Source of the DNA: a virus | Reading direction: 5' to 3' (one strand) | Virus record (IMG/VR): IMGVR_UViG_3300045988_060960 | DNA: 64,000 nt | Part shown: piece after piece, positions 16,238-64,000 of the stretch | Numbering within the stretch: position 1 is the stretch's first letter | How the letters are laid out: every line of letters begins with the position of its first letter | Translations under genes and position numbers: made by a program | Notes under the pieces: model-generated | Databases searched by the model: none | What the model was told of the DNA's origin: nothing | The model's input: the letters and a program-made list of their open reading frames with translations, nothing else

Positions 16238-16247
16238 GAGGAAAAAC

Positions 16248-26861: not shown

Positions 26862-27004
26862 AGGGATGTTCCTCCTTTTAGCTGTACGGGCTTTCCAGCG
26901 CCTCCGCAGAGGTGTACTAACCCGCTCCCCAAATTTGCTTATCTTCACCAAGGGGTGCGCGACTACCTGTGCCGTGAAATGGAGGATTAAGCAAAGCACA
27001 AAAA

Positions 27005-27147
27005 GGATGCGGCAGCCGATGTTCGCGTTCGAGTTCGAGACGTCGTTGTAGTTGACGTAGAACAGGCCGTGGTTGGTGTTCTGGTTGTAGTTGCCACCAA
27101 CGTAGAGGCACGGGTTCGACGAGTTGAAGTTCCAGTTATCGCACGTA
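27005..27147 (-). repeat. DGR template repeat (TR)
   Basis: 143 bp aligned to 27265-27407 (offset 260). It is rich in AAC codons on the minus strand (translates as CDNWNFNSSNPCLYVGGNYNQNTNHGLFYVNYNDVSNSNANIGCR). Confidence 0.9.
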
Positions 27148-27189
27148 ACCCAGAACGATGACATCGGCACTGCACAGGTAGCCCCGGTT

Positions 27190-27259
27190 GGTCCCCGCGC
27201 CTACGGCGCGGGTCCCTTATGAGGGGGCTTCGCCCCCTCAAACTCCCCCATTAGGGGAG
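27190..27259 (-). promoter_or_regulatory. Three consecutive GC-rich hairpins between VR and TR
   Basis: Hairpins: CTCCCC/GGGGAG (27243-27259, including the stop codon), GAGGGGGC-TTC-GCCCCCTC (27221-27239), and CCCGCGCC-TAC-GGCGCGGG (about 27193-27213). Confidence 0.6.
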
Positions 27260-29350
27260 TTCTTGGAGGCGGCAGCCGATGTTCGCGTACGAGTACGAGA
27301 CGCCGTTGAAGTAGACGAAGAACAGGCCGCGGTAGGTGCTCTGGACGTAGTAGCCACCAACGCAGAGGCACGGGTACGACGAGTTGAAGTACCAGTAATC
27401 GCACGAATACGTAGAATCGCTGCCACTGGACGCAGACGGCGCGAACACCGGGAACCCAGCCTGAGTTCTCACTGTGAACTTAGAAGGATAACCGCTCGTT
27501 AGCGTACCCACGTTCACGCCGTTGGCGCTGTCGCTGAACTGGTTGGGATTCTTGATGACGTTCAGGCCGCTGCCGTTGTAATAGCAACCGTCCATCCAGT
27601 CGTACACGTTATCCCACAAGCCCTCGATGTTGCGGTACTGGGTACCGCAGCCGTAGGTGGTGCGGGAGTTCTTCGTGGTGCCGGTATGGTAGGGCATACT
27701 GTCGGTGTACCCCATATTCTCGGTGTTGCTGTCGTTACCGCAGCCATACCCGATTTTCGCCTGAGAGTTCCAATCGGCGAACTCCACAATGTAGAGCAGC
27801 CAGATGGTGAAACGCATCAGGAAGTCCATCTGCCAGATGTTCGCGCCGAGGCCATGAATGGTGGAACGAGCACTGGACCGGGTGATGTTCGCCTTGGGGC
27901 GCTGGCCGCTGGTGGACTTGTTGCTGGACGTGCCGCAGTGATAACGACCGATGTACACGACATCGCGCTCGCCCTTGCCGTCGCCCCTGTCCATGTGGGC
28001 GGGGGAAACAGAAAAGCCGCTCTGCGCTCTGTCGGCGATCTGGATTTTCAGGCCGTTGCCGTTCTGGGTCAGCTTGTACCAGAACTTCGGGATGGCGACC
28101 ATCGTACCGCCGGTGCGCTCGCTCTTGACCATGCCCGCCCACGGCTGCAAATCGTCGAAGGGAGAGCTGTACTTACTTGCGCCCTGCACATACGGCACGG
28201 GGTCAGTGAAGCCCGCCGCCTCATCGGTGCGGGTCCACTTGGTCGTGCTGCTGCCATCCCAGCTCGCGCCGTAGATGTGGACCATGTTGGTCACGTTGAC
28301 CGTAAAGGTCTTGTTGGCGGGAGCGTTGTGGTTCGTGCCAGCCGCGACCTTTACGGTTACAGTCACGTTGCCCTCATCGAGCGCGGTGACGTTTACCTTG
28401 TTGCCGCTGACCGACACGCTGACGACATCGGGGTCGCCGGACGTGGCGGTAATCGCACCGTCGCCCGCACGGGTCACAGTGACGGAGCCGGTAGGCGAAT
28501 CGCCGTTCAGCGACAGCGAAGTCGGATTGAGGCTCAGAGAGCCAGCAGCCTTGGCAATGCTCCACGCCACGGTCTTGGCGGTGGTCGTGCCGTCGCTCCA
28601 CTGGTAGCCGGGCTTCGGAGTGAAGCTGGCATTGTAGCTGCCGGCGTTGGTGCCGCTGGTCGTGCCGCCCAGTGTCAGCTCGGCGCTGTTGTAATCGTCG
28701 AACGTGGGGGTCTGCGCCTGACCGGTGTAGGTCAAGCTCTCGCCCTGAGACGGGATGGCCGCAATGGGGATTTTGACGGTGGCGGTGTAGTTCTCGTCGG
28801 CCTCCGTCACGTTGACCTCTACGGACGCAGAGGTCTTGCCGGAAATTGTGGCGCTTACCGTGTATTTGCCGGCCTTCTTGACCGAGATCGCAGCCACGCC
28901 GCTGCCGTTGGCGGTTGCGGTGTAGGCGCTGCCACCGAGGACAGCCTTTGCCTCCGCGTTGGGGGCAGTCGTGACCGTAATGGTCGCGGTGAACACGGCC
29001 AGCGTGACTTCATACTGGCCGAAGTACGCGCCGGTGGTCACGGTTGCGGAATACTGCTCGCCAGACGCTGTGCTCGCGCTGACGGTGTACTCCGTGTTGC
29101 AGTTCTTGACGCTGACGGAATCCACAAGACCCTCCGGCACGGTGCCGGTCTTGGTGTCCCCCGCGCCGTCAGTAACCGTGTACTGCTGGCCGGCAAAGTC
29201 AGCGTCGAACGTGATTTTCAGGACGCACCCGGAACCGCCGCCCCCTTCAAGCGCCTCGTTCGCCTTCTCCAACGCGCTGTTGGCAAGGGCGCGAACCGCT
29301 TCAAGCTCGGGACCGCTCACGCCGGGTACGTTTACACTTCCATAGCCCAT
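27251..29350 (-). CDS. DGR target: receptor-binding tail-fibre protein with Ig-like repeats and a C-terminal FGE-sulfatase/C-type-lectin-like VR domain
   Basis: 699 aa. The central region has T/S/V-rich beta repeats. The C-terminus ...YIGRYHCG...GLWDNVYDWMDG...CDYWYFNSSYPCLCVGGYYVQSTYRGLFFVYFNGVSYSYANIGCRLQELP carries the VR. Confidence 0.85.
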   Translation of the reverse strand: MGYGSVNVPGVSGPELEAVRALANSALEKANEALEGGGGSGCVLKITFDADFAGQQYTVTDGAGDTKTGTVPEGLVDSVSVKNCNTEYTVSASTASGEQYSATVTTGAYFGQYEVTLAVFTATITVTTAPNAEAKAVLGGSAYTATANGSGVAAISVKKAGKYTVSATISGKTSASVEVNVTEADENYTATVKIPIAAIPSQGESLTYTGQAQTPTFDDYNSAELTLGGTTSGTNAGSYNASFTPKPGYQWSDGTTTAKTVAWSIAKAAGSLSLNPTSLSLNGDSPTGSVTVTRAGDGAITATSGDPDVVSVSVSGNKVNVTALDEGNVTVTVKVAAGTNHNAPANKTFTVNVTNMVHIYGASWDGSSTTKWTRTDEAAGFTDPVPYVQGASKYSSPFDDLQPWAGMVKSERTGGTMVAIPKFWYKLTQNGNGLKIQIADRAQSGFSVSPAHMDRGDGKGERDVVYIGRYHCGTSSNKSTSGQRPKANITRSSARSTIHGLGANIWQMDFLMRFTIWLLYIVEFADWNSQAKIGYGCGNDSNTENMGYTDSMPYHTGTTKNSRTTYGCGTQYRNIEGLWDNVYDWMDGCYYNGSGLNVIKNPNQFSDSANGVNVGTLTSGYPSKFTVRTQAGFPVFAPSASSGSDSTYSCDYWYFNSSYPCLCVGGYYVQSTYRGLFFVYFNGVSYSYANIGCRLQELP
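27265..27407 (-). repeat. DGR variable repeat (VR) at the 3' end of the target gene
   Basis: By my manual alignment there are 18 mismatches to the TR. Every one is at a position where the TR coding (minus) strand has A. The first non-A mismatch (27148/27408) marks the repeat boundary. Confidence 0.9.
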
Positions 29351-41886: not shown

Positions 41887-41901
41887 AGGTCAACACTCCT
41901 T

Positions 41902-42214
41902 CTGAAACATTCAGCCGTTTCGCGCGCGCGTACTATGCACGAATTAGGCGTATTAGAGAGAATAGGCGTATACGTGCTGCACACGAATACGCCTAAATAC
42001 TCTATTTTAGATATTATTAGGAATAAATGTTTCAATGTTTCAAAACGGTCAAAACCCCAGTAAATACGGGGATTTTGGGTGAAACATTGCCGATACATTG
42101 GCGAAACTTTGAAACATTCGGGGGCTGAAACATTGGGTTGAATTTCCCGCCTAAACTTCGACTTTCGTGTCTAATGTTAGACTTTAATTCAGATGTATCA
42201 CCCCAATGTTTCAG
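41902..42214 (-). repeat. 313-bp non-coding element, copy B (inverted relative to copy A)
   Basis: It has the same 10-bp termini and the same length. It contains 7 exact TGAAACAT/ATGTTTCA octamers (41903, 42080, 42110, 42126; 42027, 42035, 42206) and a hairpin TAGGCGTAT/ATACGCCTA (41963-41971 / 41987-41995) at the position homologous to the hairpin in copy A. Confidence 0.85.
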
Positions 42215-51183: not shown

Positions 51184-52644
51184 TTAGAAATTGAAAGAGA
51201 AGCCGAACGGCTGCTTTTCTTCCAGTTCAAGGTAGGCGTTTGCTGACGCATCCACCATATCTTTCAGTTTCCCTACGGGGAAGTTTTCAAGCTGCCTGAA
51301 ATACTCGTCATTCCACTCTGCGAGTTTTACATCGACATTTCCGGCAAGCCACTGAGAGGAAAATGGTTCTGCTCTTGTTACCTTGTCTCCGCTTTCAAGC
51401 GAGGTGGTAACAGTGAAGCCTCCCAGCATTCTCACAAAGCTCTGGGCCTGATCCTTTCCAGCTTGTCCGGGGTCCTGCGGAAGTCGGATAGTCACATTTC
51501 CGTAGAGCGCATTGTCGCTCTGGGCAGTGTTCAGAATGAGTTGTCGCACATCAGCGCCGTTTTCGCGGACATTTATGACGTCCGCGACAAAGATCCGGCC
51601 ATTCTTTCTCTTTCCGAGAAGAACGCCTGCTGTATAAGCGCTGCTGTCGCTACGACTGTTTTTACGTAGAGCCTGCGGCAGTCCGTCAAGTTCGTCCACT
51701 TCACCGGGCGCCGTAGCGGCAAGGTCCCAAGCACGAACCCACCGAACAACGTCGGTAGGCACCGCATGGAACATCTGCCCGACTTTGGAGCGTTTGAAGT
51801 AATGCCCGGCGGATCTTCGGATTTTCCAGTTGCCGTTCAGCAGCTGTTCCTGGTCGAACTCAGACATCGCTCTCAGAGCGCCCATGTATCCAGGGTCGTG
51901 TTTCATCATGGCGGCGTTGTCCGTCAGCTTGGCGCTGATGAAGGATACGGACTTTACGTCTTCTTGCTCCTCCGGGGAATACAGACGGAAAGTTTCGTAC
52001 AGTTCCTGCGGAGTATCGGCCCAGTGGATGATGTTATTTCGCCGGACGAAGTATCGCAGCTTTCCGCATTTACTTTCGTCAGCGTACCCGGTTTCCGGGT
52101 CGATCCACCAGTCGATGAACTTCGCCACCCAGCTCTCGCCGTCAGGGTTGCAAGTGGCGCGGATATGCGGCTTTACGCCGCAGGTTGAGCGGTTACGAGA
52201 GAACATATAGAAAAACTGGCTCTCCGTGAAATGCACGAGTTCGTCGAACATCAGGAGCGGGATCTGAGAACCCTGCCAGTTGTATTTCTCTTTCTCGTAG
52301 AACATATGAGCGAACGTCACTTTGGCGCCAGACTGAAATCGCCACTGCACATTTGGCGTCAAAACGCTTGTCGCACCAAGATACGGATAGATCTCTTGGC
52401 TTGTGGCGTACAGACCGCCAGCGCTCATAATCTGCGGTCTGGACTGGCGGAATATTACGGCCTCGAACAGTTTGTTATCTACGTGCCGCAGACATTCAAG
52501 CAGCAGCGCAAAGGTCTTTCCGCCGCCCGCTGCGCCGCCATAAATACAAATGTCAGCCGGGGACCGCAGAAACATTTCCTGCTTTCCCTTTTGCGGGCGA
52601 ATAATTACCGGGCAGCTGCCGGAATCAGTCTTTCTTTTTGCCAT
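51184..52644 (-). CDS. terL: Terminase large subunit
   Basis: It has a Walker A motif (IYGGAAGGGKTFALL), LLMFDELVHF, and a C-terminal nuclease region. The ATG at 52644 follows GGAGG. Confidence 0.9.
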   Translation of the reverse strand: MAKRKTDSGSCPVIIRPQKGKQEMFLRSPADICIYGGAAGGGKTFALLLECLRHVDNKLFEAVIFRQSRPQIMSAGGLYATSQEIYPYLGATSVLTPNVQWRFQSGAKVTFAHMFYEKEKYNWQGSQIPLLMFDELVHFTESQFFYMFSRNRSTCGVKPHIRATCNPDGESWVAKFIDWWIDPETGYADESKCGKLRYFVRRNNIIHWADTPQELYETFRLYSPEEQEDVKSVSFISAKLTDNAAMMKHDPGYMGALRAMSEFDQEQLLNGNWKIRRSAGHYFKRSKVGQMFHAVPTDVVRWVRAWDLAATAPGEVDELDGLPQALRKNSRSDSSAYTAGVLLGKRKNGRIFVADVINVRENGADVRQLILNTAQSDNALYGNVTIRLPQDPGQAGKDQAQSFVRMLGGFTVTTSLESGDKVTRAEPFSSQWLAGNVDVKLAEWNDEYFRQLENFPVGKLKDMVDASANAYLELEEKQPFGFSFNF

Positions 52645-53059
52645 TCTCACCAACCTCCGAATCTCTCTCAGGCAGGTAAATCTGGACCTGCGGCTGGACA
52701 GAAAGGGGAGTTCCAGTGATCTTGGCCTCCACAGCTTTCCGGTCGTTGAAGAAGTCGCCGCCGTACACCTTCAAGGCATAAATTATGGCGGTCGTATCTC
52801 CACTCGACACGCGCTCCATCAATTTGTTCTGGCACATAGCCACAACGGCAAGACGGCCATTCTTGATGGCTTTCTCCAAAGCAGCGTGTTCTTTTTGGAG
52901 GTTTTGCAAGGTTCGTCTGGTGATGTCGAACACTTTCGCGATCTCATCCATCGACTTACCCTGCATGGCGAGGGACTGCACAATGGCGAGGTTGTTTTCA
53001 ACCTCGCCAGATTCTATCCACTGCTCGAACAGGTCCTTTCTCTTTTTCTCATTAGCCAT
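52625..53059 (-). CDS. terS: Terminase small subunit
   Basis: 144 aa. It has an HTH (GKSMDEIAKVFDITRRTLQNLQKEH) and sits immediately upstream of terL. Confidence 0.75.
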   Translation of the reverse strand: MANEKKRKDLFEQWIESGEVENNLAIVQSLAMQGKSMDEIAKVFDITRRTLQNLQKEHAALEKAIKNGRLAVVAMCQNKLMERVSSGDTTAIIYALKVYGGDFFNDRKAVEAKITGTPLSVQPQVQIYLPERDSEVGENGKKKD

Positions 53060-54455
53060 ACCTCTCCGCTACCTTTTCGATTAGGGCAGTCATAAGACCT
53101 ACGTGCTTGTTGTGCTTGAAGCCGCCGGGGTACTCGATGTTCAGCTCCTTTTCCAGATAAGTCTCATAGACTTCGTCGGGAAGCTGCTTGGGCTTCATGC
53201 AGGCGCAGTAGATATACCCAGCATTGCAGGCCAGAACGCCGACCTCATCGAAATAGTTTTCGAGGAGCGCAACATAGCTCTCACGGGTGTGGAACTTCTG
53301 CTTAAACACGATGCCGTTGGTGACGCCAAGCGTGTAGTTCTTGTCATCAAGATACCACAGGCAGTCACCCGCTCCGGCGGACAGCTTGGTTTTGTCGTAT
53401 GCCTTCTCAACATACGCAAGGTTTCTGGTGCAGGTAATCAGAACGCCGCTGGCTTTCAGAACGGCATTACAGGCGGTGAGAACCGCCTTCTCGAACTCAT
53501 CGTCCACGACAGAGTTGATTACGGCTTCCAGAACGCAGTAATCGAACAATCCGTCTGTGCGGACGTGCCGCTCGGCGCTCAGAATGTTGGCGATGATGCC
53601 CTTCATGTCCAGCTTGTTCGCGCCCTTCACCATAAGGGACGGCTCATACGCATGAATGTCGTAGCCCTTGGATTTCAGCAGCTTCACATAGGCCATGCGC
53701 CCCGCCCCGATGTCGATGATACTGTCCGACCGCTGCAAGCGTGGAATCAGGTACTTCTCATACAGGACAGAAGAATTGGACTGCCGGCCATCCGTACTCA
53801 GGCGCTTGGGCTGCGCAAGGAACTGGTGGTAGGTCTGAACACCGAGATTGTCGAAGTTGTACTTGCCGTACTCGACGCCCATACATTCGAGGAACTCGGC
53901 AACATCCTCGTTTTGGATGGCGTAGCACAGAACGCCGTAGCCCAGCTTCTTGGAGCAGTAGGCATACTCGGAGTTGAGGATGACATTGCCATCCCCATCC
54001 GTAACAACACTGCCCCACTCGCCGTAGCGGGACATCAGCTTGGTGATCTCCGAGCACACGAGAACATTCTGCGGCTCGCTCTCGATCTTGATTTTGTCCG
54101 AGGGGCAATAGTGGTAGCCGCCCACCGTGAACTCCTCGATGCGAACCGTGGTTTTGCTGGTCTCAATCGAGTTGTGCATCAGGTTGAACAGAATCTCGTC
54201 CTGAAGATTGGGGCTTTTGATTCTGATACAAGGCAGGTACTCCAAGCCGATGGCAGTGGCCGCCTTCTTTCTCTGGTGGCCGGCGGTGATGACATTGTTG
54301 GTGGAGTTGACAATCAGGGGCTTAACCATGCCAAACCGACGGATGCTGTGCTGAAGGGCTTCCAGCGCCTCTGGCGTGATGGAGCGGGGGTTGTACTCTG
54401 ATCCGGTTACTTCGTCGATCGGAACCTTCTCCACGAAATCAATCACGGTTTTCAA
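53052..54455 (-). CDS. ParB-N (ParB/Srx-like) domain fused to a class I SAM-dependent methyltransferase
   Basis: N-terminus: EYNPRSITPEALEALQHSIRRFGMVKPLIVN..ITAGHQRKKAA. C-terminus: motif I IIDIGAGRMAY, acidic post-I HAYEPS, motif II FDYCVLEAVINSV. I saw no [DNS]PP[YFW] tetrad anywhere in the 467 aa. Confidence 0.8.
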   Translation of the reverse strand: MKTVIDFVEKVPIDEVTGSEYNPRSITPEALEALQHSIRRFGMVKPLIVNSTNNVITAGHQRKKAATAIGLEYLPCIRIKSPNLQDEILFNLMHNSIETSKTTVRIEEFTVGGYHYCPSDKIKIESEPQNVLVCSEITKLMSRYGEWGSVVTDGDGNVILNSEYAYCSKKLGYGVLCYAIQNEDVAEFLECMGVEYGKYNFDNLGVQTYHQFLAQPKRLSTDGRQSNSSVLYEKYLIPRLQRSDSIIDIGAGRMAYVKLLKSKGYDIHAYEPSLMVKGANKLDMKGIIANILSAERHVRTDGLFDYCVLEAVINSVVDDEFEKAVLTACNAVLKASGVLITCTRNLAYVEKAYDKTKLSAGAGDCLWYLDDKNYTLGVTNGIVFKQKFHTRESYVALLENYFDEVGVLACNAGYIYCACMKPKQLPDEVYETYLEKELNIEYPGGFKHNKHVGLMTALIEKVAERYG

Positions 54456-55296
54456 CCCCCTTCAGAAGATAATTCGCAAAGCTCTCCGCCAGAATTGCGC
54501 CAGAGTCGATGTACTCCTTGTACTTCTCGTTCAGCCGGTCCATCTCCACCTGGGAGATGAAGAACGACACATCGCCGAACCGGAACTGACAGAACGGAAG
54601 AGCTGCTTTGGATTCCTTTTTCTGAGGCTCGTCATCGGCTTCGGGGGCCTCATAGGACGCTGCGTTTTCGGCTGCGGGAACGGAAGCGGCGGGCACATCA
54701 GGCTGGGACGCCAGCGTGGGATAGGAAACCTCCGGCGTCGGGGCCGTATCAACTTCATCATACCCGCCCGCAACTGCATCATTTTCTGCGTTGATGATGG
54801 AATTGCTGTCAACGGTGTGGACGGTGGGCTTCTTGGCCTTGGGCTTGTCGTTTACGCCCATGAAGTTGAAAGCCGGAATCTTGATCTCAGCCTGCTCCGG
54901 CTCGATGTCAAACACCTCGGTGCTCAGCTCGAAGCGATCCAACAGCAGCTGGTTCTTGTCAAGCGTGAGGTCAACGAGGGACAGTTCTTCTTTCAGCTTC
55001 TCAAAGTCCCAGTCGCTGTACTCGCTGGTTTTGTTGTCAACCAGTCGGAACAGATTGATCTGCTCCTCAGACAGCTCATCTGCGACGATGCAGGGAACAG
55101 TCTGGATTCCCATTTCACGGCAGGCCCGCACACGGGTGTGACCGCACACGATTGTGTAATTCATGTCGATAACAACCGGGAACAAGAAGCCGAACCGCTC
55201 GATGCTGTATTTCACCTTCTCTACGGCAAGGTCGTTGTTTCGCGGGTTGTTCTCATATTCCCGCAGACGGGATACGGAAACTTCTCTGATGTTCAT
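54439..55296 (-). CDS. ParB-N domain protein (285 aa)
   Basis: LREYENNPRNNDLAVEKVKYSIERFGFLFPVVID..IVCGHTRVRACREMG. The C-terminal motif FRFGDVSFF...RLNEKYKEYI is shared with the next gene. Confidence 0.8.
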   Translation of the reverse strand: MNIREVSVSRLREYENNPRNNDLAVEKVKYSIERFGFLFPVVIDMNYTIVCGHTRVRACREMGIQTVPCIVADELSEEQINLFRLVDNKTSEYSDWDFEKLKEELSLVDLTLDKNQLLLDRFELSTEVFDIEPEQAEIKIPAFNFMGVNDKPKAKKPTVHTVDSNSIINAENDAVAGGYDEVDTAPTPEVSYPTLASQPDVPAASVPAAENAASYEAPEADDEPQKKESKAALPFCQFRFGDVSFFISQVEMDRLNEKYKEYIDSGAILAESFANYLLKGVENRD

Positions 55297-55820
55297 TCTG
55301 CATTACCTCCCGTCAGATACAGGACAAAACCAAGGTAGGTCTTGTTCTTTTCGATATACGCGTCGTATACGGCCTTCAGGCGGGCGTATTCTTCTTCGGA
55401 CAGCGGAAGTTCTGTGCTGCCGAAAATGAGGCATTTGTGCTCAGTGAAGAACTTTCTGTCCCTGTTCGGCGTGAAGAAGGTGGTCTTGAAATCCATGCCG
55501 ATGCCGCTCAGCTCTTTGTGCAGCTTACCGACATCCCACGTGGAATACTCGTGGCTCTTGTTGTCGATGATCCGGGCCAACTTGGCATCTTCCTCAGACA
55601 TTTCCTGAACAATGCAGGGAACCTCGGTCATTCCAAGCCGTTTCGCGGCCTTCAATCTGGTGTGGCCGGAGATGATGACATTATTCGCGTCGATAGTGAT
55701 AGGGTTGAGGAATCCGAACTCGCGGATGCTTTCTGCAACCTTCGCGACACCGCCATCATTCCGGCGGGCATTTCCCTCGTATTCAACGAGTTCATCTACC
55801 CGCTTGTAAACAATTTCCAT
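55293..55820 (-). CDS. ParB-N domain protein (175 aa)
   Basis: LVEYEGNARRNDGGVAKVAESIREFGFLNPITID..IISGHTRLKAAKRLG. The C-terminal motif is LIFGSTELP...RLKAVYDAYI. Confidence 0.8.
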   Translation of the reverse strand: MEIVYKRVDELVEYEGNARRNDGGVAKVAESIREFGFLNPITIDANNVIISGHTRLKAAKRLGMTEVPCIVQEMSEEDAKLARIIDNKSHEYSTWDVGKLHKELSGIGMDFKTTFFTPNRDRKFFTEHKCLIFGSTELPLSEEEYARLKAVYDAYIEKNKTYLGFVLYLTGGNAE

Positions 55821-55840
55821 GTCGTGTCCTCCTTGTGTGT

Positions 55841-55880
55841 GAGCATAAAAAATGGGAGCCTTTCAGAACGGAAGGCTCCC
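55841..55880 (-). terminator. Rho-independent terminator after the SAM synthetase gene
   Basis: On the minus strand, the 9-bp stem GGGAGCCTT / AAGGCTCCC has a 9-nt loop and is followed by ATTTTTT. Confidence 0.7.
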
Positions 55881-55905
55881 AAATTTATCAGGTATTCAGT
55901 TTCCG

Positions 55906-56700
55906 TTAAAACAGGCCCCACTCAGCGAACTTTTCAAAACCGCCGCAGTTCTTGATAAACTCTCTGGCGATCTCAACGATTTCGCTGTAAGGCTTCCCGT
56001 CAACCTCGTCGTCGCCGATGGCGCAGAACAGCTTGACCGGCTTGCCGGTATGCTGCGCTTTGAGGAAAGCGTAAATATTGACGGACACATCCGCCTTGGA
56101 CAGGTCCTTTCCGTGCAGCCCGCCGCCCGTGACAGAATCAGCCATGTCAGAGCCGAGCTTTCGGTTAGTTGCTCCGGTATCAACATCCGTTCCGCCAGTC
56201 CAGTCGCCGAGCGGGTTGATCTCGGCGGTGGGGTACATCTTTTCGAGGTCTGCCTTCGCAGCGTTGCTCTGGCAGATAATGAGCTGATCTTCGCTCTTGA
56301 TATACTTGCCGTCAAACGGATAGGCTGCATAGATGTCGTGGGCAATCGCGGAGAGCGTCTTCTGCTCCTCCGTGAGCGGCATCCCTTTGAAGATACCGTT
56401 GTCGCCGCAGTGAACACCCCGCTCCTGATTTCCTGCGAGGTGTACATCCTGCGGGACGATAACGAGGTCGATCTGCACGAAGCCAGCGATGCGGCGGATC
56501 GCGTTGTGGATTGCAACGACAACTTCGGGCATAAGAAGCGGCGCCGAAGTCTCGACAACCGCATGGCATACGCCGTGGCCCACCAGAACCTCAACCGCGA
56601 TTTTGGGGTCGGGCTGTACCTGATAGGCAATGTCTACGATCGCGCCGGCAATCCGGTCTGCGATTTTGTCCGGGTGGGACGGATTTACTTTCTCAATCAT
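55906..56700 (-). CDS. Miniature S-adenosylmethionine synthetase (MAT/MetK-like, 264 aa)
   Basis: SHPDKIADRIAGAIVD (compare GHPDKICDQISDA), CGDNGIFKG (compare GDQGLMFGY), and TGATNRKLGSD...GGGLHGKDLSKADVSVN (compare TGRK...GGGAFSGKDPSKVDRSA). Confidence 0.8.
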   Translation of the reverse strand: MIEKVNPSHPDKIADRIAGAIVDIAYQVQPDPKIAVEVLVGHGVCHAVVETSAPLLMPEVVVAIHNAIRRIAGFVQIDLVIVPQDVHLAGNQERGVHCGDNGIFKGMPLTEEQKTLSAIAHDIYAAYPFDGKYIKSEDQLIICQSNAAKADLEKMYPTAEINPLGDWTGGTDVDTGATNRKLGSDMADSVTGGGLHGKDLSKADVSVNIYAFLKAQHTGKPVKLFCAIGDDEVDGKPYSEIVEIAREFIKNCGGFEKFAEWGLF

Positions 56701-56704
56701 GGTC

Positions 56705-57541
56705 TCAGTTCCTTTGCTTTATTTTTTCGTTCCCGTTGAGAGGCGGCCCGAGGAGGTCGCAATCCACGTCAGGAGCGGGCTGAACATAGCCGTAGTGGTT
56801 TGCATAACAGTAGGCGCAGCCGTTGCTGCAAGTGCTGTACGCACCGATATCGACGCTCTCAACGCATTGGCAAAGGCCGCGCTGGTTGCGGTCCTTTGGC
56901 TTGTCAACGCCAAACATTTTTCCATCGACGCAGCAAGAATGGGGTATTCCCAAATCCTCTGCGCAGGAACTTAAAACGATCCCGTGCTGCCGTGCAATCT
57001 CGAAAAGTTCCTGCGCAAATTCGCGCTGCTGCTCCGGCGACAAGGGCTGTATTTTGAGCGGTCGGAGGTCTACGCTTCGGTAGGAATCGACGAAGCTCAT
57101 CACCGCCTTATACGTGTGGCCTTCGAGCGCCTCCGCGATTTTGGTAAAAGCCCTGACGTGATAATCCCAGGTGTATTTCTCATTCAGAAAGACGGGATCG
57201 TAACGCCAGATGGCCTTATCCGCCCCGATCTTTTTGAACGCCGGAATAACAATCTCGTTCTTATCGGGAATATTCCGCTCCACATCCCGGCCATACGGGG
57301 TGATGGTGTACTGGAAATAATATTTGAACGCATCCAGCTCGTGAATTCTATCGAGCATGGGGGCTGCGTTTTTGGTCCAAAAAACAAACCCATCTACTTT
57401 GTCGGGCGTGAGGGATACACGCCCGACTTGTAGAGGGTTGTATGGGTTTCTAAGGAGGACAAATCCCTTACCCACGCGGTTGTAAAACCACTCGGAGAAC
57501 AAAGCCGGGATGTCCGTCCGTCTACTTGCGCTCACGATCAT
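56705..57541 (-). CDS. DUF1848-like protein with a C-terminal Cys cluster (putative Fe-S, radical-SAM-like)
   Basis: The N-terminus is MIVSASRRTDIPALFSEWFYNRV and the C-terminus is GLCQCVESVDIGAYSTCSNGCAYCYANH. Start set at 57541 (ATGA overlap with the upstream gene). The track ORF extends further by read-through. Confidence 0.8.
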   Translation of the reverse strand: MIVSASRRTDIPALFSEWFYNRVGKGFVLLRNPYNPLQVGRVSLTPDKVDGFVFWTKNAAPMLDRIHELDAFKYYFQYTITPYGRDVERNIPDKNEIVIPAFKKIGADKAIWRYDPVFLNEKYTWDYHVRAFTKIAEALEGHTYKAVMSFVDSYRSVDLRPLKIQPLSPEQQREFAQELFEIARQHGIVLSSCAEDLGIPHSCCVDGKMFGVDKPKDRNQRGLCQCVESVDIGAYSTCSNGCAYCYANHYGYVQPAPDVDCDLLGPPLNGNEKIKQRN

Positions 57542-58008
57542 AATGGCATCCCATCCTTCAAGTAATTCGCAAATATCCAGTTTCGGCAGGTCCGCTGAGA
57601 CTTTGTATAAACTCCGGGCGGATTCGGAACATAGTCCCAGAAGTGAATTCTGCGGGCGTTTGTGATGTCGAGCTTGATTCTGTCGTTTTCGATGTGAACT
57701 TCCGAATTGCTGTCCGGCACAAACGCGACGTGCGTATTCAACTCCCACACAAAACCATCGCTCAGCCCGCAAAGATAATACGCTTTCGCTCGCGGGCTTT
57801 GCCCCACCATGATGTCAACAACGGCCTGCGATTTGTGCAGTGTTCCGTAGTAGACCCGGTTGTCCTTCTCGCCGATAAAACACTTGGCGCAGCATTGCGA
57901 GATGTCAACGTCCCGAATGTCTCGGAGCCAGAAGAAATTGCATTTCTTCCGAATCTCCAATCGCAGGTGCATCGGCGCGTGTGTAACTATGAAATCCGAT
58001 GGTATCAT
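57538..58008 (-). CDS. Cys-containing 145-aa family protein, paralog 3 of 3
   Basis: MHLRLEIRKKCNFFWLRDIR..CCAKCFIG..AYYLCGLS..NTHVAFVP..TCRNWIFANY. The likely true start is the ATG at 57972, because the ATG at 58008 lies inside the -10 box. Confidence 0.8.
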   Translation of the reverse strand: MIPSDFIVTHAPMHLRLEIRKKCNFFWLRDIRDVDISQCCAKCFIGEKDNRVYYGTLHKSQAVVDIMVGQSPRAKAYYLCGLSDGFVWELNTHVAFVPDSNSEVHIENDRIKLDITNARRIHFWDYVPNPPGVYTKSQRTCRNWIFANYLKDGMPL

Positions 58009-58036
58009 TATAGCACCCCCTTAAATGACAGGTCAA
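58007..58036 (-). promoter_or_regulatory. Candidate promoter TTGACC-18-TATAAT for the three-gene SAM cassette
   Basis: On the minus strand, TTGACC is at 58036-58031 and TATAAT at 58012-58007. Confidence 0.45.
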
Positions 58037-58440
58037 TGACAGCTTTGTGACACGACGGAGACCCCTTGAATTTCAGGGTTCTGCGCCATGATCCAGTTCC
58101 CGAACTCGGTCAGGATCACCTCGCAGGGGCAAGAAAGCGCCGGCAAGAACTCCACGCCGGTCTCACTCATCGCACTGCGAACCGCAATGAACTCGCGGTC
58201 ATACCCGCTCACACGAGTTCTGGAAACCTTGGCTCGGTCGCCGTGGTCAGTGAAGCTCTCGAACAATGCGTGAGCGAGCGGATTTCCGGCGCTCAGCGAT
58301 TCACCCACAGTGAGCCGAGCTAAAACAACTTTGTAGCCTCCCGGAACAGTACCGACGAGGGTGTATTCACTGACGTTGCTCACGTAGTTCGGGAGAGGAT
58401 TGCCGCCCTCAAAGGGCTGCGGAATAAAATTCTTAATCAT
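58033..58440 (-). CDS. Hypothetical protein
   Basis: 135-aa ORF that overlaps its neighbours. Confidence 0.6.
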   Translation of the reverse strand: MIKNFIPQPFEGGNPLPNYVSNVSEYTLVGTVPGGYKVVLARLTVGESLSAGNPLAHALFESFTDHGDRAKVSRTRVSGYDREFIAVRSAMSETGVEFLPALSCPCEVILTEFGNWIMAQNPEIQGVSVVSQSCH

Positions 58441-58681
58441 CGTTGTCTACAACCTCCACAAAAGTATTTTCATCTTCGCAGTCCAGAGCGAGCATCAGGT
58501 CTGTATAGCTGGCGTTCTGAATTTCGATGGAACGCGAATTGGTGAGATCGCGTACCGTGATTTTCCGAGTGGGATGAAGGGCAGATACGAGATCAACCAG
58601 GTATTTCAAAACGCAGCAAACCAGAACCGTAAAACCGAGCCAGATCCAGAAGCTCGAAAAGATAAACTTAATAAATTCCAT
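58433..58681 (-). CDS. Small membrane protein (82 aa)
   Basis: The ATG overlaps the upstream stop. The product begins MEFIKFIFSSFWIWLGFTVLVCCVL. Confidence 0.55.
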   Translation of the reverse strand: MEFIKFIFSSFWIWLGFTVLVCCVLKYLVDLVSALHPTRKITVRDLTNSRSIEIQNASYTDLMLALDCEDENTFVEVVDNDD

Positions 58682-59223
58682 CACACGTTTCCTCCTCCAA
58701 CTGTTGAATCGTGCCACTGCAAACCGCGCTTTTTGTAAAGCGGAATCCAATGTTCGGCGTAGAAATCATAACCGGCTCCGTCGATTCCGAAGAAGTACCC
58801 CCACTCATCGTGGTGATAAATTCGGAATCCGCAGTCCGACATCGCACGAATGCCATCCTCATTTTCGAGCCAGTAATCATCGCAGGAATCTCCGAAGCTC
58901 CACATCGTTCCCCACATGGGGAGCGGATCATCGTTTGCCAATTCCAGATTATCCGGTTCTACGAGGATGGAAGGTCCTCCATCCAGATCCACACGGTACT
59001 TGTCGATCTCCGCGGAATACGCGACGACCTCGCCGAGATGTTCCAGCGTGTCACAATTTTCGGGCAGATCGAATACGTAAACCCGCCTGCCGGCACTGGG
59101 AAACGTCAGCTCCTCCCACTCCTCGCACTTAGACTGCATGAGCCGCTCAATCATACCCTGCGGAATGGCATTGAACTCGCGGACCCATTTTTGAGTGGCG
59201 TCATTTATAGATAAGCCTTTCAT
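58681..59223 (-). CDS. Hypothetical conserved phage protein
   Basis: 180 aa. It has a PMWGTMWSF...GIDGAGYDFYAEHWIPLYKKRGLQWH block. I recall the pattern from phage proteins of unknown function. Confidence 0.65.
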   Translation of the reverse strand: MKGLSINDATQKWVREFNAIPQGMIERLMQSKCEEWEELTFPSAGRRVYVFDLPENCDTLEHLGEVVAYSAEIDKYRVDLDGGPSILVEPDNLELANDDPLPMWGTMWSFGDSCDDYWLENEDGIRAMSDCGFRIYHHDEWGYFFGIDGAGYDFYAEHWIPLYKKRGLQWHDSTVGGGNV

Positions 59224-59238
59224 GTCCTTTTCACCTCC

Positions 59239-59940
59239 TTACAGTTCATACTCTTTGGGTCGCCCAGCCTTTCCCTTGTACCGAACGCTGGGACGCACCC
59301 ACACAGTTTTGCCGGACTTGTAATGCCGCAAGTGGCCTCTGATATTGACCTCGTGCTCAGGCTTGGTATACTTGCGCTTGGCGCCTTCCGGCTTCGGCAA
59401 ATCCTCCGGCTGGAAATCGCCGAGCGTGTAGATGCGTCGGATGAGGGGCTGCGGTCGCCGTATGTGGCGGCCTTTTTTCTTGGACTTCGCAGGTCGATGC
59501 TCCGTTCGCTGCTCGACCTTGACCACCTCCCGGTAGTGGGTCATAAACAGCATCAGCGCGTGATACTTCTGCGCCTCTTTCCGGCACATATTGTCCGACA
59601 TGACGAGCACATTGAGCAGCTCCAAATCCACCGCAGTCTGACTACCTGCCGGAGCCACCCGGCGGTTTCGGATTTCGGTGGTCTCCGGGTCATAGTCGAA
59701 CGCCACGATGGGCGGGAGGTTCGGCTTCGTTGTGACATACACAACGATCTCCGCGAAGCTGCCCTTGCTCTCGAACGTGAACTCGACCTGCTCCTCGCAA
59801 AGTTCCACAACACCGGATTCCATAGGGGCCAGAAATTTCTCGCGGTCGAGCCAGTTGAAGTTCTCGAAGTACCAATCGAGAACCAGCTGCATACGAGCGT
59901 TGCTCTTAACAATGATGCGATCAGCCGAGTTCCTGTTCAC
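59239..59940 (-). CDS. Hypothetical protein with a basic C-terminus
   Basis: 233 aa. A GTG start follows GGAGGG. Confidence 0.65.
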   Translation of the reverse strand: MNRNSADRIIVKSNARMQLVLDWYFENFNWLDREKFLAPMESGVVELCEEQVEFTFESKGSFAEIVVYVTTKPNLPPIVAFDYDPETTEIRNRRVAPAGSQTAVDLELLNVLVMSDNMCRKEAQKYHALMLFMTHYREVVKVEQRTEHRPAKSKKKGRHIRRPQPLIRRIYTLGDFQPEDLPKPEGAKRKYTKPEHEVNIRGHLRHYKSGKTVWVRPSVRYKGKAGRPKEYEL

Positions 59941-59943
59941 AGG

Positions 59944-60561
59944 TCAACCCTCCAATCTGGTGCTCCACCGAGCAGCTTTTTCGCGGATGAACCGCTCAAC
60001 TTCATCCTGGTCCAATCCCAAAGCTGCCGCGCACACAACCACATCGGCGAACTCCTCATTCAAAGCGCGGGACGCCTCACTCGTACTGACCGGGGTGCGG
60101 TTGCGCTTGTCAATAGTTCTGCGCAACTTCAGTGCGGCCTGAGACAATTCAGCGGCTTCCTCTGCCAGCCCTGCCAGAAGCTCACAGCAGCCAAGCAAAG
60201 TGTGTACTTCCGCAAGCTCACGGCCCCAGTCTTCGAGAGCCTTTTCGATACTTACCTCCGGGCGAATTACCTCGCGGATAATCTCTACCCGAAGGCAGCC
60301 CTCGATATCCTCCGATTCGTCGGCATGGTCATAATCAGCGAGCTTAACTTTCAGAGCCAGATCCCGAGACGGGATGAAAGCATCCACAATGGAGGGGATG
60401 CAGCTGAACCCGTTGTCGGTGTTCCAGCAGACTGCGAAGTCCTTCCCGCTTTGCCGCAGAACGTAGCACAGCTCGTTCAGCGAGCGAGGGTTGCTCTTGG
60501 CGAGGAGCGGGTGCTTTGCAAACTCCTCGTCAAGCCAGGTCTTGAATTGCTCAATATTCAT
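59944..60561 (-). CDS. MazG-like nucleotide pyrophosphohydrolase domain protein
   Basis: The C-terminal half LLAGLAEEAAELSQAALKLRR...LNEEFADVVVCAAALGLD matches the MazG EExxE/helical pattern. The ATG at 60561 follows AAAAGGAGGA. Confidence 0.65.
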   Translation of the reverse strand: MNIEQFKTWLDEEFAKHPLLAKSNPRSLNELCYVLRQSGKDFAVCWNTDNGFSCIPSIVDAFIPSRDLALKVKLADYDHADESEDIEGCLRVEIIREVIRPEVSIEKALEDWGRELAEVHTLLGCCELLAGLAEEAAELSQAALKLRRTIDKRNRTPVSTSEASRALNEEFADVVVCAAALGLDQDEVERFIREKAARWSTRLEG

Positions 60562-60585
60562 CTCATGTCCTCCTTTTTTGGGCAA

Positions 60586-60615
60586 TAGAAAAAGGCCCGC
60601 CGGTTTGGCGGGCCT
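60586..60615 (-). terminator. Rho-independent terminator (minus strand), mirrored at 60868-60897
   Basis: The 9-bp stem AGGCCCGCC / GGCGGGCCT is followed by a T-run on the minus strand. Confidence 0.6.
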
Positions 60616-60921
60616 CTCGGTATAGGCAAATTCAGCTATCTATCAAGGTGGAAACTATACCAAAAAGTCTTTTGGACTTCAATGTATCACCGCCTATTCG
60701 CAATCTTTATGTCACAGAACAGCCATTAGTCACACGGGGTATACCCCGTGTGACTAATGGCTGTTCTGTGACATAAAGATTGCGAATAGGCGGTGATACA
60801 TTGAAGTCCAAAAGACTTTTTGGTATAGTTTCCACCTTGATAGATAGCTGAATTTGCCTATACCGAGAGGCCCGCCAAACCGGCGGGCCTTTTTCTATTG
60901 CCCAAAAAAGGAGGACATGAG

Positions 60922-61539
60922 ATGAATATTGAGCAATTCAAGACCTGGCTTGACGAGGAGTTTGCAAAGCACCCGCTCCTCGCCAAGAGCAACCCTCGCT
61001 CGCTGAACGAGCTGTGCTACGTTCTGCGGCAAAGCGGGAAGGACTTCGCAGTCTGCTGGAACACCGACAACGGGTTCAGCTGCATCCCCTCCATTGTGGA
61101 TGCTTTCATCCCGTCTCGGGATCTGGCTCTGAAAGTTAAGCTCGCTGATTATGACCATGCCGACGAATCGGAGGATATCGAGGGCTGCCTTCGGGTAGAG
61201 ATTATCCGCGAGGTAATTCGCCCGGAGGTAAGTATCGAAAAGGCTCTCGAAGACTGGGGCCGTGAGCTTGCGGAAGTACACACTTTGCTTGGCTGCTGTG
61301 AGCTTCTGGCAGGGCTGGCAGAGGAAGCCGCTGAATTGTCTCAGGCCGCACTGAAGTTGCGCAGAACTATTGACAAGCGCAACCGCACCCCGGTCAGTAC
61401 GAGTGAGGCGTCCCGCGCTTTGAATGAGGAGTTCGCCGATGTGGTTGTGTGCGCGGCAGCTTTGGGATTGGACCAGGATGAAGTTGAGCGGTTCATCCGC
61501 GAAAAAGCTGCTCGGTGGAGCACCAGATTGGAGGGTTGA
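60922..61539 (+). CDS. Mirror copy of the MazG-like gene
   Basis: Its translation is identical to 59944-60561. Confidence 0.5.
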   Translation: MNIEQFKTWLDEEFAKHPLLAKSNPRSLNELCYVLRQSGKDFAVCWNTDNGFSCIPSIVDAFIPSRDLALKVKLADYDHADESEDIEGCLRVEIIREVIRPEVSIEKALEDWGRELAEVHTLLGCCELLAGLAEEAAELSQAALKLRRTIDKRNRTPVSTSEASRALNEEFADVVVCAAALGLDQDEVERFIREKAARWSTRLEG

Positions 61540-61542
61540 CCT

Positions 61543-62244
61543 GTGAACAGGAACTCGGCTGATCGCATCATTGTTAAGAGCAACGCTCGTATGCAGCTGG
61601 TTCTCGATTGGTACTTCGAGAACTTCAACTGGCTCGACCGCGAGAAATTTCTGGCCCCTATGGAATCCGGTGTTGTGGAACTTTGCGAGGAGCAGGTCGA
61701 GTTCACGTTCGAGAGCAAGGGCAGCTTCGCGGAGATCGTTGTGTATGTCACAACGAAGCCGAACCTCCCGCCCATCGTGGCGTTCGACTATGACCCGGAG
61801 ACCACCGAAATCCGAAACCGCCGGGTGGCTCCGGCAGGTAGTCAGACTGCGGTGGATTTGGAGCTGCTCAATGTGCTCGTCATGTCGGACAATATGTGCC
61901 GGAAAGAGGCGCAGAAGTATCACGCGCTGATGCTGTTTATGACCCACTACCGGGAGGTGGTCAAGGTCGAGCAGCGAACGGAGCATCGACCTGCGAAGTC
62001 CAAGAAAAAAGGCCGCCACATACGGCGACCGCAGCCCCTCATCCGACGCATCTACACGCTCGGCGATTTCCAGCCGGAGGATTTGCCGAAGCCGGAAGGC
62101 GCCAAGCGCAAGTATACCAAGCCTGAGCACGAGGTCAATATCAGAGGCCACTTGCGGCATTACAAGTCCGGCAAAACTGTGTGGGTGCGTCCCAGCGTTC
62201 GGTACAAGGGAAAGGCTGGGCGACCCAAAGAGTATGAACTGTAA
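61543..62244 (+). CDS. Mirror copy of the 233-aa hypothetical protein
   Basis: Its translation is identical to 59239-59940. Confidence 0.5.
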   Translation: MNRNSADRIIVKSNARMQLVLDWYFENFNWLDREKFLAPMESGVVELCEEQVEFTFESKGSFAEIVVYVTTKPNLPPIVAFDYDPETTEIRNRRVAPAGSQTAVDLELLNVLVMSDNMCRKEAQKYHALMLFMTHYREVVKVEQRTEHRPAKSKKKGRHIRRPQPLIRRIYTLGDFQPEDLPKPEGAKRKYTKPEHEVNIRGHLRHYKSGKTVWVRPSVRYKGKAGRPKEYEL

Positions 62245-62259
62245 GGAGGTGAAAAGGAC

Positions 62260-62802
62260 ATGAAAGGCTTATCTATAAATGACGCCACTCAAAAATGGGT
62301 CCGCGAGTTCAATGCCATTCCGCAGGGTATGATTGAGCGGCTCATGCAGTCTAAGTGCGAGGAGTGGGAGGAGCTGACGTTTCCCAGTGCCGGCAGGCGG
62401 GTTTACGTATTCGATCTGCCCGAAAATTGTGACACGCTGGAACATCTCGGCGAGGTCGTCGCGTATTCCGCGGAGATCGACAAGTACCGTGTGGATCTGG
62501 ATGGAGGACCTTCCATCCTCGTAGAACCGGATAATCTGGAATTGGCAAACGATGATCCGCTCCCCATGTGGGGAACGATGTGGAGCTTCGGAGATTCCTG
62601 CGATGATTACTGGCTCGAAAATGAGGATGGCATTCGTGCGATGTCGGACTGCGGATTCCGAATTTATCACCACGATGAGTGGGGGTACTTCTTCGGAATC
62701 GACGGAGCCGGTTATGATTTCTACGCCGAACATTGGATTCCGCTTTACAAAAAGCGCGGTTTGCAGTGGCACGATTCAACAGTTGGAGGAGGAAACGTGT
62801 GA
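62260..62802 (+). CDS. Mirror copy of the 180-aa hypothetical protein
   Basis: Its translation is identical to 58681-59223. Confidence 0.5.
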   Translation: MKGLSINDATQKWVREFNAIPQGMIERLMQSKCEEWEELTFPSAGRRVYVFDLPENCDTLEHLGEVVAYSAEIDKYRVDLDGGPSILVEPDNLELANDDPLPMWGTMWSFGDSCDDYWLENEDGIRAMSDCGFRIYHHDEWGYFFGIDGAGYDFYAEHWIPLYKKRGLQWHDSTVGGGNV

Positions 62803-63050
62803 TGGAATTTATTAAGTTTATCTTTTCGAGCTTCTGGATCTGGCTCGGTTTTACGGTTCTGGTTTGCTGCGTTTTGAAATACCTGGTTGATCTCGTATCT
62901 GCCCTTCATCCCACTCGGAAAATCACGGTACGCGATCTCACCAATTCGCGTTCCATCGAAATTCAGAACGCCAGCTATACAGACCTGATGCTCGCTCTGG
63001 ACTGCGAAGATGAAAATACTTTTGTGGAGGTTGTAGACAACGATGATTAA
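62802..63050 (+). CDS. Mirror copy of the small membrane protein
   Basis: Its translation is identical to 58433-58681. Confidence 0.45.
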   Translation: MEFIKFIFSSFWIWLGFTVLVCCVLKYLVDLVSALHPTRKITVRDLTNSRSIEIQNASYTDLMLALDCEDENTFVEVVDNDD

Positions 63051-63450
63051 GAATTTTATTCCGCAGCCCTTTGAGGGCGGCAATCCTCTCCCGAACTACG
63101 TGAGCAACGTCAGTGAATACACCCTCGTCGGTACTGTTCCGGGAGGCTACAAAGTTGTTTTAGCTCGGCTCACTGTGGGTGAATCGCTGAGCGCCGGAAA
63201 TCCGCTCGCTCACGCATTGTTCGAGAGCTTCACTGACCACGGCGACCGAGCCAAGGTTTCCAGAACTCGTGTGAGCGGGTATGACCGCGAGTTCATTGCG
63301 GTTCGCAGTGCGATGAGTGAGACCGGCGTGGAGTTCTTGCCGGCGCTTTCTTGCCCCTGCGAGGTGATCCTGACCGAGTTCGGGAACTGGATCATGGCGC
63401 AGAACCCTGAAATTCAAGGGGTCTCCGTCGTGTCACAAAGCTGTCATTGA
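63043..63450 (+). CDS. Mirror copy of the 135-aa hypothetical protein
   Basis: Its translation is identical to 58033-58440. Confidence 0.5.
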   Translation: MIKNFIPQPFEGGNPLPNYVSNVSEYTLVGTVPGGYKVVLARLTVGESLSAGNPLAHALFESFTDHGDRAKVSRTRVSGYDREFIAVRSAMSETGVEFLPALSCPCEVILTEFGNWIMAQNPEIQGVSVVSQSCH

Positions 63451-63474
63451 CCTGTCATTTAAGGGGGTGCTATA

Positions 63475-63945
63475 ATGATACCATCGGATTTCATAGTTAC
63501 ACACGCGCCGATGCACCTGCGATTGGAGATTCGGAAGAAATGCAATTTCTTCTGGCTCCGAGACATTCGGGACGTTGACATCTCGCAATGCTGCGCCAAG
63601 TGTTTTATCGGCGAGAAGGACAACCGGGTCTACTACGGAACACTGCACAAATCGCAGGCCGTTGTTGACATCATGGTGGGGCAAAGCCCGCGAGCGAAAG
63701 CGTATTATCTTTGCGGGCTGAGCGATGGTTTTGTGTGGGAGTTGAATACGCACGTCGCGTTTGTGCCGGACAGCAATTCGGAAGTTCACATCGAAAACGA
63801 CAGAATCAAGCTCGACATCACAAACGCCCGCAGAATTCACTTCTGGGACTATGTTCCGAATCCGCCCGGAGTTTATACAAAGTCTCAGCGGACCTGCCGA
63901 AACTGGATATTTGCGAATTACTTGAAGGATGGGATGCCATTATGA
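63475..63945 (+). CDS. Mirror copy of the Cys-containing family protein (paralog 3)
   Basis: Its translation is identical to 57538-58008. Confidence 0.5.
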   Translation: MIPSDFIVTHAPMHLRLEIRKKCNFFWLRDIRDVDISQCCAKCFIGEKDNRVYYGTLHKSQAVVDIMVGQSPRAKAYYLCGLSDGFVWELNTHVAFVPDSNSEVHIENDRIKLDITNARRIHFWDYVPNPPGVYTKSQRTCRNWIFANYLKDGMPL

Positions 63946-64000
63946 TCGTGAGCGCAAGTAGACGGACGGACATCCCGGCTTTGTTCTCCGAGTGGTTTTA
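63942..64000 (+). CDS. Mirror copy of the DUF1848-like gene, 5' fragment truncated by the window end
   Basis: It begins ATGATCGTGAGCGCAAGTAGACGG = MIVSASRR. Confidence 0.5.
   Translation, partial: MIVSASRRTDIPALFSEWF

Follow-up and report, generated by a model that had tools for sequence, protein, structure and literature searches.

A multi-kilobase perfect palindrome in a gut phage contig is very probably a technical fold-back seeded by a natural 28-bp palindrome

Introduction

Sequences joined to their own reverse complement are known from both assembly and library preparation. SPAdes and MEGAHIT report a palindromic unitig in its full length, and unsafe unitigs can result from low or imperfect coverage (Rahman and Medvedev 2022, PMC9528984); in single-cell assemblies, contigs that mirror themselves exactly were treated as artefacts and removed (bioRxiv 10.1101/2023.06.06.543983). 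During library preparation, palindromes and inverted repeats give rise to chimeric reads (PDSM model, PMC10908179), fold-backs from amplification and long-read sequencing are documented (Pacasus, PMC6218980; PMC12870357), and palindrome or inverted-repeat chimeric reads have been described in sonicated, enzymatic, amplified and long-read libraries (PMC10908179, PMC6218980, PMC12870357). Here we analyze a palindrome in the virus record IMGVR_UViG_3300045988_060960, of which a stretch of 64,000 nt (hereafter the window) was studied. The last 6.5 kb of the window, beginning in a temperate phage and passing beyond its end, form a perfect palindrome without a spacer. The results indicate that this mirror is very probably a technical fold-back, seeded by a short, hairpin-forming natural palindrome that we call P1, and that it represents no structure of the phage or its host; the giant palindrome is almost certainly no real biological feature.

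Results

The two arms of the palindrome, 57483-60741 and 60742-64000, are exact reverse complements. A base-by-base comparison of positions 60741-k and 60742+k gave 0 mismatches over 3259 positions and no N, and an independent repeat search returned the same arms (3259 nt each, 100% complementary, 0-nt spacer). Mirrored coordinates sum to 121483, and the centre reads ...AGTCACACGGGGTA to the left of the dyad and TACCCCGTGTGACT... to the right. An earlier, preliminary description of the window had given this perfect zero-spacer palindrome, the coordinate sum and the centre sequence correctly. It had also remarked that only the window cuts the right arm short, and complementarity does run up to the window edge, which alone bounds that arm; the identical translations of the mirrored open reading frames (ORFs), which it had listed too, are a trivial result, because the mirror is exact. 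The structure lies far above chance, because the longest other zero-spacer palindrome in 1-60700 has arms of 7 nt and shuffled sequences give 6-10 nt.

The centre of the mirror falls on a natural sequence element. Positions 60728-60755 form P1, a perfect palindrome of 28 bp and by far the longest one available for a fold-back (the next best in 60.7 kb being that with 7-nt arms), so placed that a random breakpoint would land on its dyad about once in 60,000 times. As single-stranded DNA, P1 forms a hairpin of -14.6 kcal/mol (z = -5). It is genuine sequence, identical in 22 independent loci (L001-L022) that consist of a match in the human-faecal scaffold MT837738 and 21 human-gut metagenome contigs found in a scan with the 22-nt core of the centre. 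Every one of these loci (22/22) reads ...CCATT AGTCACA CGGGGTA TACCCCG TGTGACT TGCATATGCA AGTCACA..., with the dyad between CGGGGTA and TACCCCG, and then runs on into ordinary, non-mirrored sequence. A fold-back at P1 is found in 0/22 contigs: P1 is internal in all of them and continues as TGCATATGCAAGTCACA..., and the copy whose flank agrees with that of the window always has a 14-nt arm. One locus, L021, has a tandem copy of P1 and of P2, the 24-bp palindrome that overlaps P1; this copy reads 31 nt. The 26-nt P1 sequence had 0 matches in IMG/VR, and the 22-nt centre core had 0 matches in GTDB genomes. We also checked whether the left end of the window carries the missing right half of the P1 site, and it does not.

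These comparisons locate the point at which the window departs from natural sequence. The 28-bp site is already palindromic in its natural form, and hence the 14 nt to the right of the centre (60742-60755) are still natural; the first non-natural base is 60756. From there onward the expected sequence is TGCATATGCAAGTCACA..., that is, P2 and then the right flank of the element carrying P1 (the L-family, described below); the preliminary description had held that the true sequence to the right is missing, and it can now be named as ...TGTGACT TGCATATGCA AGTCACA... followed by that flank. What the window holds at 60756-64000 is the reverse complement of 57483-60727, which we regard as an artefactual mirror on the basis of the mirror check, the natural continuation in the 22 contigs and a further contig (L115) in which natural P1-P2 adjoins the same phage. 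The genuine copy of the mirrored segment is 57483-60727 (minus strand), with the same gene order called in contigs L102-L111; it comprises the 5' part of a DUF1848 gene, six small genes (156, 135, 82/105, 180, 233 and 205 aa), the phage att arm and 81 nt of flank.

The fold-back can be spelled from natural sequence as long as words are short. All fold-back words of up to 29 nt are present in the natural duplex, and 1, 2, 4, 26 and 30 words are absent from it at lengths of 30, 31, 33, 55 and 59 nt, respectively. When a toy doubled de Bruijn graph has k ≤29 and lacks any word by which P1 could be left on its right side, its maximal unitig is a sequence X followed by its own reverse complement, X+rc(X); at k ≥31 no fold-back appears. 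The observations are those expected of an artefact: an exact mirror without a spacer, a turn-round on a natural palindrome, non-mirrored sequence at 22/22 loci, and a path that can be spelled at small k.

A second assembly bears on the origin of the fold-back. The MEGAHIT contig k119_67851 (L108) matches the window at 100% identity over 11,503 nt and ends at the same point, with a stub that follows the fold-back for 30 nt, 16 nt of them beyond P1. Since words that long are absent from the natural duplex, the stub hints at the presence of at least a few fold-back reads in the data behind that assembly. Neither the parent contig nor other copies of the fold-back turned up in the collections searched. 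A 42-aa ORF that spans the centre, specific to fold-backs of at least 35 nt, is not on record; nor is the exact 213-aa ORF, because the called gene is the 205-aa form.

To place P1 relative to the phage, we compared the window with relatives found by exact-protein look-ups, which include many contigs of ∼61 kb at 97-100% identity. In two of these contigs (L103 and L113) the genes of the window's left end are joined to the 205-aa gene in a circular junction, ...TATAGGCAAATAGAGCTAACCATC-TT-GATAGATAGCTGAATTTGCCTATA..., so that attP reads ...AGAGCTAACCATC-TT-GATAGATAGCTGA... with 11-nt inverted arms (TATAGGCAAAT/ATTTGCCTATA). The window itself opens within the att core, TCAA at positions 1-4, with the crossover dinucleotide AA (TT on the other strand) at 3-4: the reverse complement of window positions 1-28, ...TATAGGCAAATAGAGCTAACCATCTTGA, is identical to the P arm of the circular junction, and after ...AACCATCTT the sequence differs in nine contigs. 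At the other end, comparison of 13 junctions, all of which read N-TT-GATAGATAGC and at least 11 of which have differing flanks, places the crossover AA (TT on the other strand) between phage and flank at 60645-60646. In 13 other contigs (loci L102-L131) the sequence outside N-TT-GATAGATAGC or AACCATC-TT-N differs, giving at least 11 unrelated flanks, one of them in a 162-kb bacterial contig with housekeeping genes of 57-59% GC, and two attB sites could be rebuilt exactly from paired flanks. Because of the circular junctions and the differing flanks, we take the phage unit to run from the att core at 1-4 to that at 60645-60646. The suggestion in the preliminary description that 60741 may mark a physical genome end does not survive this comparison: the phage stops at its att core, and between there and the centre lie 95 nt of flank from an unrelated element.

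The integration pattern is that of a multi-target element, with at least 11 flanks that are all of the form N-TT-N and an integrase with the domain set of large serine recombinases. This 466-aa protein (20327-21727, plus strand) has Resolvase (2.2e-38), Recombinase (1.3e-16) and Zn_ribbon_recom (2.7e-12) domains; Pfam detected no DUF4368 domain in it. Judged from these junctions, the phage appears to behave as a multi-targeting large-serine-recombinase element with a TT core. In the 162-kb bacterial contig (L102, positions 9203-9380; prophage 98% identical), the junction beside the 205-aa gene lacks ∼24 nt of the usual att arm (…TTTTGATAGAGGCCCGCC…), and this shortened arm may be a decayed or locked-in prophage end.

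The sequence beyond the phage, 60647-60727, is 98-99% identical to the 22 gut contigs and belongs to an unrelated element of 42-48% GC, for which we use the label L-family. A search of phage databases gave a single match of 106 bp (60636-60741, 98% identity), in MT837738, which stops exactly at the centre of the mirror; phage and plasmid collections yielded nothing beyond it. The loci L001-L022 are relatives of one another, share only 60636-60741 with the window and have no tblastx similarity to it elsewhere. Among the genes sampled, they encode sigma-like/HTH_16, DUF4367, ECF sigma factor, DnaN, helicase and CHAP proteins, and these sampled genes gave no assignment of the L-family to phage, integrative and conjugative element or chromosome.

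The flank can be shown to continue across the phage insertion. When the right flank of the window, TT and the left flank of the 100%-identical contig L125 are put together, they give exactly the uninterrupted L-family sequence from -137 to -55 relative to the P1 dyad, and this rebuilt empty site matches L016 and L013 exactly. A second lysogen (k141_118470) carries a 99.9% identical phage inserted ∼1 kb away on the other side of P1; here too attB was rebuilt exactly, and P1-P2 is traversed normally. The same-strain contigs L125 and L126 run on into ordinary flank. Because of the 106-bp match, the rebuilt L-family site and the normal traversal of P1-P2, we assign 60647-60755 to the flank and regard only 60756-64000 as unnatural. 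On these comparisons, 60647-60755 is host or L-family DNA outside the phage and its apparent integration target. Two other accounts of this region were dropped: a de Bruijn chimera of phage and L-family sequence, since microhomology at the join is only ∼7 nt and the two flanks rebuild an intact attB, and an RNA gene or transposon end in the 106 bp, for which no supporting evidence was found (Rfam on 59500-62000 gave only sub-threshold noise).

The P1-P2 site has a regular natural layout, AGTCACA-N14-TGTGACT-N10-AGTCACA, in which three AGTCACA heptamers are separated by palindromic spacers; this layout is invariant in the 22 gut contigs. Its neighbours on the two sides are a 117-aa gene and a sigma-like/HTH_16 gene, with sharp mosaic boundaries around the P1 dyad at -550, -989, +31 and +853 and two alternative right-hand cassettes. 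It may serve as an operator, as a recombination site or as an origin. Some L-family variants carry, ∼1.8-3.7 kb from P1, a 641-aa protein (L009, 8304-10229, minus strand) that has no Pfam or PHROG match and that matches the E. coli antiviral defence protein ApeA (PDB 9hxb, E 3e-16); its presence in only some variants suggests variable defence cargo beside the P1-P2 site.

The junction of phage and flank has two further features. A promoter-like site (TTGAAG-17-TATAGT, 60682-60654, minus strand) lies in the flank, pointing toward the HTH_16/sigma-like gene in the empty site and into the prophage in the lysogen. Within the phage, close to its end and upstream of the 205-aa gene, a GC-rich hairpin with a T-run (GGCCCGCC-AAACC-GGCGGGCC-TTTTT, 60590-60621, minus strand) was read by eye. 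It looks like a terminator and could insulate the 205-aa operon from read-through of the flank promoter; the terminator scan did not list it, and Rfam returned only a weak ctRNA-like match (E 0.09).

The phage unit itself (3-60646, ∼60.6 kb) was mapped by codon-usage-guided gene calling, with domains assigned by Pfam and PHROGs scans and with the ∼61-kb contigs for comparison. Its gene content is that of a temperate tailed phage with a contractile-tail-type gene set. A replication module encodes a DUF2800/PD-(D/E)XK nuclease, a Gp2.5-like single-stranded DNA-binding protein, PolA, VapE and an SNF2 helicase. A long minus-strand block holds lysin, a diversity-generating retroelement (DGR), tail fibre, baseplate J, tape measure, a sheath-like DUF3383 protein, capsid, portal and TerL, and further three ParB_N proteins, DUF1848 and the six small genes, which end at 60561. 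Pfam bears out the terminase and serine integrase named in the preliminary description, the former as TerL at 51184-52653 (minus strand), which has no close cultured relative (best, 52% identity). No tRNAs were found in the window, and a search of GTDB with the 233-aa protein gave nothing useful about the host.

The DGR (25665-29350, minus strand) is canonical. It has an RVT_1 reverse transcriptase (25665-27170), a template repeat (TR, 27005-27145) and a variable repeat (VR, 27265-27405), all on the minus strand, the last at the 3' end of a gene for a 699-aa tail protein (phrog_5302). When the two repeats were compared, 17/17 mismatches were changes from an A in TR to another base (N) in VR, so that variation is confined to adenines.

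Several other features of the phage were noted. Upstream of the terminase, 53052-57772 (minus strand) holds the three ParB_N genes (one a methyltransferase fusion), a gene with a SAM-synthetase N domain and the DUF1848 gene, a run that may be a DNA-modification module; a MazF/PemK-like toxin gene (350-850) adjoins the att site at the opposite end. An inverted repeat of ∼320 nt (81-90% identity) links 15925-16242 in the replication module with 41897-42214 in the tail module, sharing no in-frame protein (only 8 residues align), and a second one of 74 nt (85%) links 216-289 with 18478-18551. Both may be repeated regulatory regions.

Discussion

We have shown above that the mirror turns exactly on the dyad of P1, and that P1 is crossed normally in 22 contigs; together these observations argue for a fold-back seeded by the palindrome and against a missed hairpin adapter at a random end. 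Of the readings offered in the preliminary description, that of a fold-back chimera is thus the best supported, except for its version with a missed hairpin adapter at a random end, with which a centre on the exact P1 dyad does not agree. The true molecule would be a lysogen arranged as [L-family left flank]-TT-[60.6-kb phage]-TT-[95 nt L-family]-P1-P2-[L-family right flank]. In a first step, the left arm would become linked to its own reverse complement at the P1 dyad. This could occur physically, if a strand ending in P1 snaps back on its hairpin and is copied during end repair or amplification, or it could occur in the assembly graph, where the turn-round would be a legal walk at small k because every fold-back word of up to 29 nt is also in the natural duplex. 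We weight an origin in reads slightly above a graph-only origin, because the same-strain MEGAHIT contig holds 16 fold-back-specific bases.

In a second step, the natural exit from P1 would be lost from the graph through thin coverage or branching, and the assembler would take the sole remaining path. Possible sources of such tangles are the overlap of P2 with P1, the alternative right flanks that begin at +31 and the duplication of P1-P2 seen in L021. Since the graph would already contain rc(X), the emitted contig would be X+rc(X), with a mirror that has no errors and extends over the full length of X. The left end of X at the att core would be a branch point of the graph, given the circular form and the many insertion sites of the phage, and the first base of the window does fall exactly in the att core. 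The parent contig is probably 121,482 nt long, running from att core to att core.

Several points weigh against this account. A graph-only origin requires both an assembly stage with k ≤29 and loss of the natural P1 exit, yet same-strain contigs reach 1.0-1.6 kb into the left flank, so coverage of the flank is not negligible. The window starts with TCAAG and not TATCAAG, which a simple two-way branch explains incompletely. Finally, fold-back molecules that really formed in vivo would explain the 30-nt stub in L108 equally well.

The last point leads to the alternatives that involve real molecules. That long palindromes undergo hairpin-capped breakage and template switching is established in yeast and in E. 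coli sbcCD mutants. A capped break or template switch at P1, arising by cruciform cutting or by snap-back of a nascent strand during in-situ replication of the prophage, could be replicated into an inverted dimer centred on the P1 dyad; such an origin would account for a centre on a strong hairpin former and for fold-back-specific bases in a second assembly of the same strain. We nevertheless consider it unlikely: P1 measures only 28 bp, a size that is normally stable, 22/22 other assemblies cross it normally, and events that are rare per cell would not dominate a metagenomic assembly. Moreover, a perfect palindrome of at least 6.5 kb is not known to be heritable in bacteria. By sequence, a fold-back made in the cell would look the same as one made by snap-back in vitro. 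A more specific proposal seems to us quite improbable: that DNA ends or hairpin-capped breaks are generated in the cell at P1 (with P2), which might be where the L-family mobile element is processed, nicked or resolved, and that replication of capped ends would yield inverted dimers that include the prophage. A covalently closed hairpin telomere, made at P1 by a protelomerase-type resolvase and read round by the sequencer, would give an exact zero-spacer palindrome on the dyad, and its unprocessed site would resemble P1 as it stands in the 22 contigs. However, P1 lies outside the phage, its dyad being 95 nt beyond the att core at 60645-60646; a circular attP junction of the phage exists (L103, L113), and the phage integrates by means of its serine integrase; the other contig end is an att core and no second telomere, and L125 and L126 continue into flank there; and P1 is internal in all 22 L-family contigs. 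The preliminary description had recognized no protelomerase-like gene, and among the 21 ORFs of at least 300 aa (all scanned with Pfam, and with PHROGs where unassigned) none matches a protelomerase or tyrosine recombinase. Nor was a protelomerase found among the L-family genes sampled around P1. Two orphan proteins were considered for this function: the 562-aa orphan matches no solved structure, hence no deposited protelomerase or telomere resolvase, and the 641-aa L-family protein is the ApeA-like one. With no resolvase, a circular attP and an att core at the other end, the hairpin-terminus or inverted-dimer junction entertained in the preliminary description is weakened further, and we regard a hairpin telomere as very improbable.

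The two remaining alternatives differ in whether the mirror is an accident of sequencing or an inherited structure. Fold-back reads are common in long-read data (PMC12870357), and a missed SMRTbell or hairpin adapter, or nanopore read-through from template to complement, could have produced a random chimera whose location at P1 is coincidental. A coincidence of this kind has very little probability, for 60.7 kb contain only one long palindrome and the centre coincides exactly with its dyad, there is neither adapter remnant nor spacer, and the same junction occurs in a second, short-read assembly. A genuine inverted duplication was also proposed earlier; one that comprises the phage end with its flank and is stably inherited has only the sequence itself in its favor, and we judge it extremely improbable. 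It would have to maintain 0 mismatches over 3259 nt with zero spacer; the mirror is not seen in other contigs of this very common phage (∼45 contigs read; the 233-aa protein is indexed in 277 blocks); the product of a mirrored ORF spanning the centre is on record nowhere; and long perfect palindromes are generally unstable. To our knowledge, long perfect palindromes without a spacer do not replicate stably in bacteria, where they cause SbcCD-dependent inviability.

If the technical fold-back at P1 is accepted, the record can be repaired. Its real sequence appears to end at 60755, and 60756-64000 should be discarded; 1-60755 would be kept, 3-60646 being annotated as the phage and 60647-60755 as flanking DNA. 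Read uncritically, the record contains genes twice, probably makes a 60.6-kb phage appear ∼121 kb long, conceals where phage and host really join and tempts the reader to infer, wrongly, that there are hairpin telomeres. The main value of the analysis is data hygiene, for which the window provides a clean worked example, and the general diagnostic is a self-complementary contig centred on a short natural palindrome that other assemblies cross normally. The comparison also defines attP and several exact attB sites for the multi-target serine integrase of a phage that is very common in the human gut, and a canonical DGR on a tail gene was identified as well.

It is instructive to compare the window with the known systems that it resembles. 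The phage is like the multi-targeting large serine recombinases (Durrant et al. 2022, PMC10083194) in that close copies occur in many unrelated targets sharing little beyond TT; it differs in that DUF4368, typical of that clade though not strictly defining, was not detected. With the hairpin telomeres generated by TelN, TelK and ResT (N15, PY54, phiKO2 and Borrelia) the window shares a zero-spacer palindrome centred on a palindromic site. It departs from all three defining features of a protelomerase system, a resolvase, a site at the replicon end and a second telomere: here there is no resolvase gene, the site is outside the phage, the phage circularizes and integrates, and the other end is no telomere. 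The resemblance to fold-back chimeras from library preparation and whole-genome amplification is closer, with a junction at a palindrome or inverted repeat and continuation on the complementary strand of the same molecule, although those are usually low-frequency reads and the mirror here is on the scale of a contig (at least 3.26 kb). To palindromic unitigs and mirrored contigs the likeness extends to an exact X+rc(X) with no spacer or mismatch, turning round at a word that is its own reverse complement; the difference is that in this case the seed can be named, as a natural 28-bp palindrome verified in 22 other assemblies.

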